From Escherichia virus TH54: a stretch of 64,000 nt of DNA. The stretch is from the sequence record MT446420.1; one strand, 5' to 3'. Each line of letters begins with the position of its first letter. The stretch's first letter is position 1. The notes beneath the pieces were generated by a model. That model was given only the letters and a program-made list of their open reading frames with translations. It was not told where the DNA came from and ran no database searches. Shown in pieces: positions 45,120 to 45,413 of this stretch. The position numbers were made by a program, and so were the translations under genes.

Positions 45120-45413
45120 TTATTCACCTGTAACCCATTGAACAATCTTGCTGTTGTCAAATGAAGCATCGCAATACAGAACATAGTTATACTGCATAAC
45201 GTCACCAGAAGCCAGTTGGTCAGATACTTCTTTAACCATATCTGGGCGGTCACGTTTAGTAATATTCATGATATCAGCATAAATCTGATGTTCAACATCA
45301 GTCTGGTCAGCAGTCATAGACCACTCACAAAGGTCTTTATCAAGTCCAGCGGTTACAGGAGCTGTACCACATGATGCTACGGTAAGAATTGCCGCGATTA
45401 ATAACTTTTTCAT
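45120..45413 (-). CDS. exported protein with signal peptide/lipobox (Spackle-like candidate)
   Basis: 97 aa; MKKLLIAAILTVASCG...; same length as T4 Sp and carries a signal peptide, but Sp sequence was not verified. Confidence 0.45.
   Translation of the reverse strand: MKKLLIAAILTVASCGTAPVTAGLDKDLCEWSMTADQTDVEHQIYADIMNITKRDRPDMVKEVSDQLASGDVMQYNYVLYCDASFDNSKIVQWVTGE

Follow-up and report, generated by a model that had tools for sequence, protein, structure and literature searches.

Spackle of Escherichia virus TH54: a probable periplasmic inhibitor of the gp5 tail lysozyme encoded between genes 41 and 61

Classical genetics tied the sp gene of bacteriophage T4 to resistance against lysis from without and to exclusion being lost in part (for a summary, see PMC7677548). 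Two independent studies have shown that the mature gene product, Spackle (Sp, gp61.3; residues 23–97), binds gp5's lysozyme domain in a 1:1 complex and inhibits this domain selectively, the T4 endolysin not being affected (PMC7677548; PMC7650644). Structures are available for Sp itself (PDB 6X6O, 7CN6) and for its complexes with the gp5 lysozyme (6XC0/6XC1, 7CN7). Sp binds by helices α1, α4, and α5 and by its C-terminal tail to a basic horseshoe on gp5 composed of R181, R182, R187, K189, R312, K321, and R326, while G322 of gp5 packs against the end of α5; the bound lysozyme is locked in an open state with one exit of the cleft blocked (PMC7677548; PMC7650644). The bacterial lysozyme inhibitors Ivy, MliC/PliC, PliG as well as PliI resemble Spackle in being small proteins that are either periplasmic or membrane-anchored, and MliC, a lipoprotein, offers a loose parallel to the lipobox-like motif discussed below. 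In contrast to these proteins, whose beta-rich folds place a loop in the active site, Spackle consists of helices throughout and exerts its effect at a distance from the catalytic residues (PMC7677548).

The window, i.e., the whole stretch of 64,000 nucleotides of Escherichia virus TH54 DNA (MT446420.1) analysed here, harbors an open reading frame at positions 45120–45413 of the minus strand which, according to the list of reading frames in the window, comprises 97 codons followed by a TAA stop. The encoded protein begins with MKKLLIAAILTVASCG and reads in full MKKLLIAAILTVASCGTAPVTAGLDKDLCEWSMTADQTDVEHQIYADIMNITKRDRPDMVKEVSDQLASGDVMQYNYVLYCDASFDNSKIVQWVTGE. A first-pass annotation, which gave no strand, had described this reading frame as a candidate for a Spackle-type secreted protein and had given a length of 97 amino acids for T4 Sp. 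The reading frame, its extent, and the quoted start (MKKLLIAAILTVASCGTAPVTAG) are borne out exactly, the strand is minus, and the length given for T4 Sp is correct. The pairwise alignment with T4 Sp called for in that annotation reveals a clear similarity: 64 of 97 residues (66%) are identical over the full length without a single gap, and within the mature part identity rises to 54 of 75 residues (72%). A phmmer search against all PDB sequences retrieved “Protein spackle” (6x6o/6xc0/6xc1) with E=3.7e-38, covering residues 1–97 of both proteins, and the mature T4 construct (7cn6/7cn7) with E=2.8e-31; beyond the Spackle entries, this search returned no match below 0.05. The Pfam family PF25676 (T4_Spackle) is matched with 147.8 bits, the gathering cut-off being 27 bits, and all profile positions (1–96 of 96) are covered. 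The “spackle periplasmic” family of the PHROG collection (phrog_1586) is matched with E=3.3e-43.

Structure prediction points in the same direction. The mature domain (residues 23–97, positions 45123–45347, minus strand) has 75 residues, a mass of 8.6 kDa, and a computed pI of 4.2, and contains a pair of cysteines (Cys29 and Cys81), both invariant in the family alignment. An AlphaFold2 model, for which 15 sequences of the family were used, reaches pLDDT values of 89–95 over residues 31–97, 76 for the block 21–30, and below 50 for residues 1–20. It comprises five helices (residues 26–34, 37–55, 57–69, 72–81, and 87–95). When compared with the PDB by Foldseek, the model superimposes on the T4 Spackle structures 7cn6 (7cn6_A) and 6x6o with a TM score of 0.96 and an rmsd of 0.6–1.2 Å. 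Only T4 Spackle chains were retrieved at E<1e-6; no other fold appeared at E<1 in the PDB, the next match having E>4, and the same comparison revealed no likeness in sequence or fold to Ivy, MliC/PliC, PliG, or PliI. The window protein shares with T4 Spackle its length, a predicted signal peptide of 22 residues containing an AxA site, the cysteine pair, the five helices, the gp5-contact residues, and the acidic surface. The Spackle-type identity proposed by the first-pass annotation is borne out by this gap-free full-length homology, the predicted fold, and the gene neighborhood shared with T4. With a probability of roughly 0.93, the reading frame (supported by the reading-frame list, PDB, PF25676, phrog_1586, and identity to the protein of Escherichia virus TH15) is the gene 61.3 (sp, spackle) orthologue in a coliphage of the T4-like genus Gaprivervirus and encodes an inhibitor of the gp5 tail lysozyme that employs the T4 mechanism.

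Most likely, this protein acts in the periplasm and inhibits the tail lysozyme gp5 allosterically. First, a sigma-70-type promoter of its own would drive early transcription of sp. The 97-residue precursor would then be exported via Sec and cut by signal peptidase I after Ala22, as suggested by the experiment on T4 Sp and by the conserved AxA site. The acidic five-helix mature protein of 75 residues is expected to remain soluble in the periplasm and to bind, in a 1:1 ratio, the basic horseshoe-shaped patch round the substrate cleft of the lysozyme domain in the gp5 tail spike, with helices α1, α4, and α5 and the C-terminal tail providing the contact surface. By analogy to its T4 homologue, it would wedge the two lobes of the lysozyme open and block one exit of the cleft, leaving the peptidoglycan uncut by a combination of allosteric and steric effects. 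An infected cell would thereby resist lysis from without as well as premature lysis, secondary T-even phages would be excluded in part, alongside the action of Imm, and free gp5 of the phage’s own progeny would be neutralised. The T4 mechanism can be assigned with high confidence because homology, fold, residue conservation, and synteny are all observed here; export, cleavage, binding, and inhibition are the steps that we infer.

Conservation at the binding interface is consistent with this assignment. All nine gp5-contact residues named for T4 Sp are identical in the window protein (S32, M33, T34, A35, Q37, N76, V94, G96, and E97), and the acidic character of the mature domain matches the basic patch on gp5. 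A tblastn search with T4 lysozyme found neither gp5 nor an endolysin in the window, and the partner was therefore examined in Escherichia virus TH15 and Shigella phage SP18, the nearest genomes. In the gp5 proteins of both phages, R182, R187, K189, R312, K321, R326, G322, and the whole QTKGRASRV segment are kept. The sole change within the basic patch is that of Arg181 in T4 to His181 in these stand-ins for the cognate gp5, such that six of the seven basic residues are retained. The window phage’s own gp5 would accordingly be expected to carry both the Spackle-binding basic patch and Gly322.

Over-expression of T4 Sp left the titre of T4 unchanged (Kanamaru et al., PMC7650644), and the term “superinfection exclusion” may therefore overstate what Sp does in the infected cell. 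The first-pass annotation had regarded the lack of an exclusion phenotype as evidence against Sp identity; this argument is invalid since a true Sp, as the T4 protein demonstrates, could fail such an assay. A tentative proposal, which we consider possible but rather less probable than not, retains the same biochemistry and holds that Sp mainly neutralises free, unassembled gp5 of the phage’s own progeny as it crosses the inner membrane, preventing premature lysis. This role was put forward for T4 by Kanamaru et al.; gp5, when over-expressed, causes lysis in the absence of a holin, over-expression of Sp has no effect on the titre (PMC7650644), and nothing within the window contradicts the proposal. 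However, the classical genetic evidence linking sp with resistance against lysis from without and with partial exclusion loss (PMC7677548) argues against it, as does timing: sp is apparently early and has an early-type promoter, whereas gp5 is made late. The neutralisation of own gp5 and a contribution to exclusion are mutually compatible.

The N-terminus of the protein shows the features of a cleavable signal peptide. According to sequence rules, residues 1–22 (MKKLLIAAILTVASCGTAPVTA, positions 45348–45413, minus strand) contain an MKK n-region, an 11-residue hydrophobic core with a mean Kyte-Doolittle value of 2.59, and a predicted signal peptidase I site, VTA/G, after residue 22. P19 and A22 are invariant across the family alignment, and the AxA cleavage site (V20-T21-A22/G23) is kept. 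In T4, gp61.3 is a major soluble component of the periplasmic release, and N-terminal sequencing has shown that the first 22 residues are removed and that the protein starts at residue 23 (PMC7650644). The same segment also contains a formal lipobox, V-A-S-C, with Cys15 as the candidate lipidation site. S14-C15 (codons 14–15, positions 45369–45374) does not vary among the 25 close homologues, T4 (LASC) being one of them, even where identity falls to 48%. The PROSITE-type lipobox rule calls for K or R in the n-region, six non-charged residues, and then [..][..][..][AGS]-C; in its shorter form, [LVI][ASTVI][GAS]C, the motif follows a brief hydrophobic stretch.

Since this rule is satisfied by the window protein and by all 25 close homologues, T4 among them, the possibility that Sp is a lipoprotein deserves consideration, improbable as it is. 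Processing would then depend on Lgt and signal peptidase II at VAS/C15, and Cys15 would tether the protein to a membrane via the eight-residue linker GTAPVTAG; Gly at position +2 would direct it through Lol to the outer membrane, so that the inhibitor would be stationed at the site of gp5 entry. A lipidated fraction would presumably stay in the membrane with a blocked N-terminus and so have been missed when the released soluble protein was sequenced. On the other hand, T4 gp61.3 is soluble in the periplasmic release and begins at residue 23 (PMC7650644), the AxA site and P19 are just as invariant as the lipobox, and two remote yet genuine members of the family (P0030 and P0035) contain PF25676 together with a signal peptide that lacks a cysteine and offers AxA sites only (AFA/G and ANA/A). 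In the family alignment, the farthest pair shows about 45% identity in the signal peptide compared with 49% in the rest of the protein; the signal peptide is thus no more conserved than the remainder, and Cys15 may persist by descent. The “possible lipobox” of the first-pass annotation is formally present; the lipoprotein reading is disfavored by the soluble, cleaved T4 Sp and by the distant homologues without cysteine. Cleavage by signal peptidase I, which we prefer, leaves the invariance of Cys15 unexplained in its simple form. Because the lipobox at Cys15 and the AxA site at residues 20–22 are both invariant in the T4/Gaprivervirus clade, Sp of these phages might conceivably be processed in two ways, giving a minor lipidated pool at the outer membrane, where the gp5 spike emerges, next to the soluble pool; the chances of this are equally slim. 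The distant member P0035 is encoded upstream of genes that resemble those for primase and dCTPase.

That the 97-codon reading frame is a real gene, far beyond chance, is confirmed by comparative data. The 421-bp stretch containing sp is present in 72 phage records at an identity of at least 80%, and the orthologue of SP18 differs from sp of the window by 12 synonymous and two non-synonymous codon changes, which indicates purifying selection. That the product is instead a new exported factor with no relation to Sp (the fallback of the first-pass annotation), or that the reading frame arose by chance, can practically be dismissed, as homology far over the family thresholds, an identical fold, the 72 phage records, and the 12:2 ratio all speak against it and no support for it was found. 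A 52-residue reading frame with a TTG start on the opposite strand (45216–45374, plus strand), which overlaps sp, lacks support and was disregarded.

The gene resides between the helicase gene 41 and the primase gene 61 and is flanked, on the T4 pattern, by dmd on one side and a 61.2-like gene on the other. Gene 41 (46952–48391), the upstream boundary of the interval, was recognised by PF03796 (DnaB_C) and is annotated as gp41 in SP18 and Escherichia phage 212. It is preceded by gene 40 (48376–48720) and uvsX (48710–49888), both assigned by Pfam. Downstream of gene 41 lie a 125-residue reading frame (46404–46781; phrog_10668), a 105-residue reading frame (46027–46344; phrog_2110), and dmd (61.5; 45814–46026), the conserved neighbor upstream of sp, which matches PF17587 with 72.3 bits as well as phrog_2102. 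A 113-residue reading frame (45472–45813; phrog_23762), weakly Dmd-like, immediately precedes sp (45120–45413). The gene following sp encodes 146 residues (44678–45118), matches phrog_8539 over its full length, and occupies the position of T4 61.2 (AdfA). It is succeeded by reading frames of 119 residues (44317–44676; phrog_4122), 73 residues (44094–44315; DUF7279), and 63 residues (43928–44119; phrog_3249), by 61.1 (43741–43908; phrog_1823, annotated as gp61.1 at this position in SP18), and by gene 61 (42680–43708), the downstream boundary, identified as DNA primase through phrog_47 (E=1e-94) and annotated as gp61 in SP18. Gene 56 (41771–42307; Pfam) lies beyond. All these genes, sp included, are on the minus strand, the one transcribed early.

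The resulting order, 41-...-dmd-x-sp-61.2-like-...-61.1-61, corresponds to 41-dmd-61.4-sp-61.2-61.1-61 in T4. Because sp occupies the 41–61 interval of T4 between dmd and the 61.2-like gene, and because synteny with T4, SP18, and phage 212 marks this as the canonical locus, the idea of a relocated 61.x-type block put forward by the first-pass annotation is not sustained. The interval has, however, grown to about 3.2 kb with 10 reading frames, as compared to 1.65 kb with five in T4, and its GC content (0.35–0.40) is mildly lower than that of the flanks (0.42–0.47). Larger and more AT-rich intervals are typical of plastic early regions in T4-like genomes. Despite the common plan, the two phages differ on either side of sp: gp61.4 of T4 is replaced upstream by the 113-residue Dmd-like protein, and the 61.2-like protein encoded downstream is shorter than T4 gp61.2.

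Some of the additional reading frames can be placed. The 105- and 125-residue frames (46027–46344 and 46404–46781) occupy the stretch that separates gene 41 from dmd and that is devoid of genes in T4; in SP18 this stretch contains reading frames of other sizes, one of them annotated as goF, and it is here that the interval differs among the closest genomes. The 113-residue protein shares 31% identity over 58 residues with Dmd of the window (E=2e-6), matches PF17587 below threshold (E=0.0017), and bears about 50 extra residues at its C-terminus; it is found in phage 212 and absent from SP18. It is a weak paralogue of the adjacent antitoxin Dmd and could represent a second anti-toxin specificity of the anti-RnlA/LsoA type. 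Its assignment as the orthologue of T4 61.4 was rejected for want of any similarity to that protein. The ATG of the 146-residue frame follows one base after the sp stop codon, a tight packing like that of sp and 61.2 in T4. BLASTP aligns its product with T4 gp61.2 (E=2e-5), the C-terminal 60 or so residues and a ...DDQIFNAFMKR tail being common to both. The 44678–45118 and 44317–44676 frames both end in ...DDQIFNAFMKR(D/G), which is the tail of T4 gp61.2, and the 146- and 119-residue frames look like shortened or duplicated genes of the 61.2 family. In Pfam, T4 gp61.2 belongs to AdfA (PF23813, anti-DarT factor A), for which the match is sub-threshold. A 191-residue, GTG-initiated version of the downstream gene (44678–45253) was disregarded, as PHROG 8539 and the annotation of SP18 fit the 146-residue frame starting with ATG at 45118.

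The other exclusion function of T-even phages, Imm, is likewise encoded in the window (50631–50870, minus strand; PF14373 with 64.2 bits; 98.75% identity to SP18 Imm by tblastn). Imm resides in the inner membrane and prevents DNA from entering, and it is unrelated to Sp in both sequence and mechanism. The imm gene is located between uvsX and the DNA polymerase region and is physically separate from sp. Together, sp and imm constitute in this phage the standard T-even pair of defences against secondary infection, a combination of relevance to the design of phage cocktails containing related Tevenvirinae.

Signals for expression are found directly upstream of sp. A strong Shine-Dalgarno sequence, GAGGAG (45420–45425, minus strand), precedes the ATG (45411–45413) by 6 nt and is part of a 16-nt leader, AACTACTGAGGAGATT, which in the upstream alignment is invariant between the window phage and T4. 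A consensus scan, together with an alignment of T4, SP18, and phage 212, further revealed the promoter-like site TGTACA-17-TATATT (45442–45470, minus strand), which aligns with a GTTTAC...TACTAT element upstream of T4 sp and may serve as an early sigma-70 promoter. This site and the conserved leader are in line with a published account of Sp as an early gene product (PMC7677548). An inverted repeat, AGGGATAAT-N7-ATTATCCCT, with a stem of 9–10 bp (45436–45460) overlaps the −10 element of the putative promoter; it is kept in SP18 and phage 212 and absent from T4. Folding of this leader hairpin yields z = -2.2 relative to shuffled sequences, which is a modest gain, and an Rfam scan of both strands of positions 42500–47000 gave no match at E<=0.1.

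The 33 substitutions that distinguish the window protein from T4 Sp cluster in two places, the signal peptide and the last 15 residues, the latter being the most diverged part with only six of 15 positions identical. They include E93W, K83A, N84S, K88S, N89K, and A92Q (T4 to window). This segment comprises helix α5 and the tail packing against Gly322 of gp5, E93W and A92Q being changes in α5 that neighbor conserved contact residues. In the original S12 sp mutant, it is likewise helix α5 that is changed (PMC7677548). Affinity, or specificity toward heterologous gp5 proteins, could therefore differ from that of T4 Sp. At residue 93 (45135–45137) in helix α5, Glu and Trp alternate in several separate branches of the family, as exemplified by …QWVTGE, …KEVTGE, …KWILG, and …KEILG. 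A change between the two requires at least two nucleotide substitutions, and an exchange of modules or a switch in specificity may lie behind the alternation. A different kind of variation is seen in three 104-residue proteins from metagenomic contigs of up to 79 kb (P0014, P0016, and P0017). Residues 1–32 and the C-terminal segments are nearly identical to those of the window protein, while the center is replaced and longer by seven residues (…CEWSTGQTGDATQ…, …RENTPAKQQ…). This replacement removes M33-T34-A35, a segment that in T4 touches gp5 through its backbone; the arrangement resembles a mosaic produced by recombination, and its interface may be altered.

The gene is already known, as sp is annotated in related phages. 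The protein is 100% identical to that encoded by an unannotated reading frame of Escherichia virus TH15 (Gaprivervirus), the DNA of the sp stretch being 99.8% identical. It differs by two residues from SP18_gp037 of Shigella phage SP18, annotated as “sp, spackle periplasmic”, and by one residue from the product of the likewise annotated gene in Escherichia phage 212. Essentially no difference exists between sp of the window and the Gaprivervirus genes of SP18, 212, VR20, VR25, VR26, P896, CJ20, and TH15, which also have the same neighbors. In 22 phage genomes, a match with 90–97% identity covers 80% or more of the 5.8-kb neighborhood of sp, all of those listed being from Escherichia or Shigella phages. 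Among the records whose taxonomy was read, SP18 and TH15 belong to Gaprivervirus (Straboviridae, Tevenvirinae). The Spackle family as a whole has few members and is restricted to T4-like phages. It forms 23 clusters at 90% identity, and an exhaustive profile search of 1.84 billion proteins (50%-identity representatives) yielded only 14 matches. Four long proteins of 800–1549 residues (P0028, P0029, P0031, and P0032), which align in many short stretches through repeats resembling MQYNYVLYCD (e.g., MRFTYILHCK), were judged spurious. The correct name for the gene is sp (Spackle, gp5 tail-lysozyme inhibitor), in place of “hypothetical” or “periplasmic rIV”; beyond annotation, this has little significance. 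Sp is mis- or under-annotated as “periplasmic rIV” or “hypothetical protein” in MW233709 (UPEC01), MW250787 (UPEC07), and OK254198 (PSD2001), and the label “periplasmic rIV” given to it in UPEC01 is wrong.
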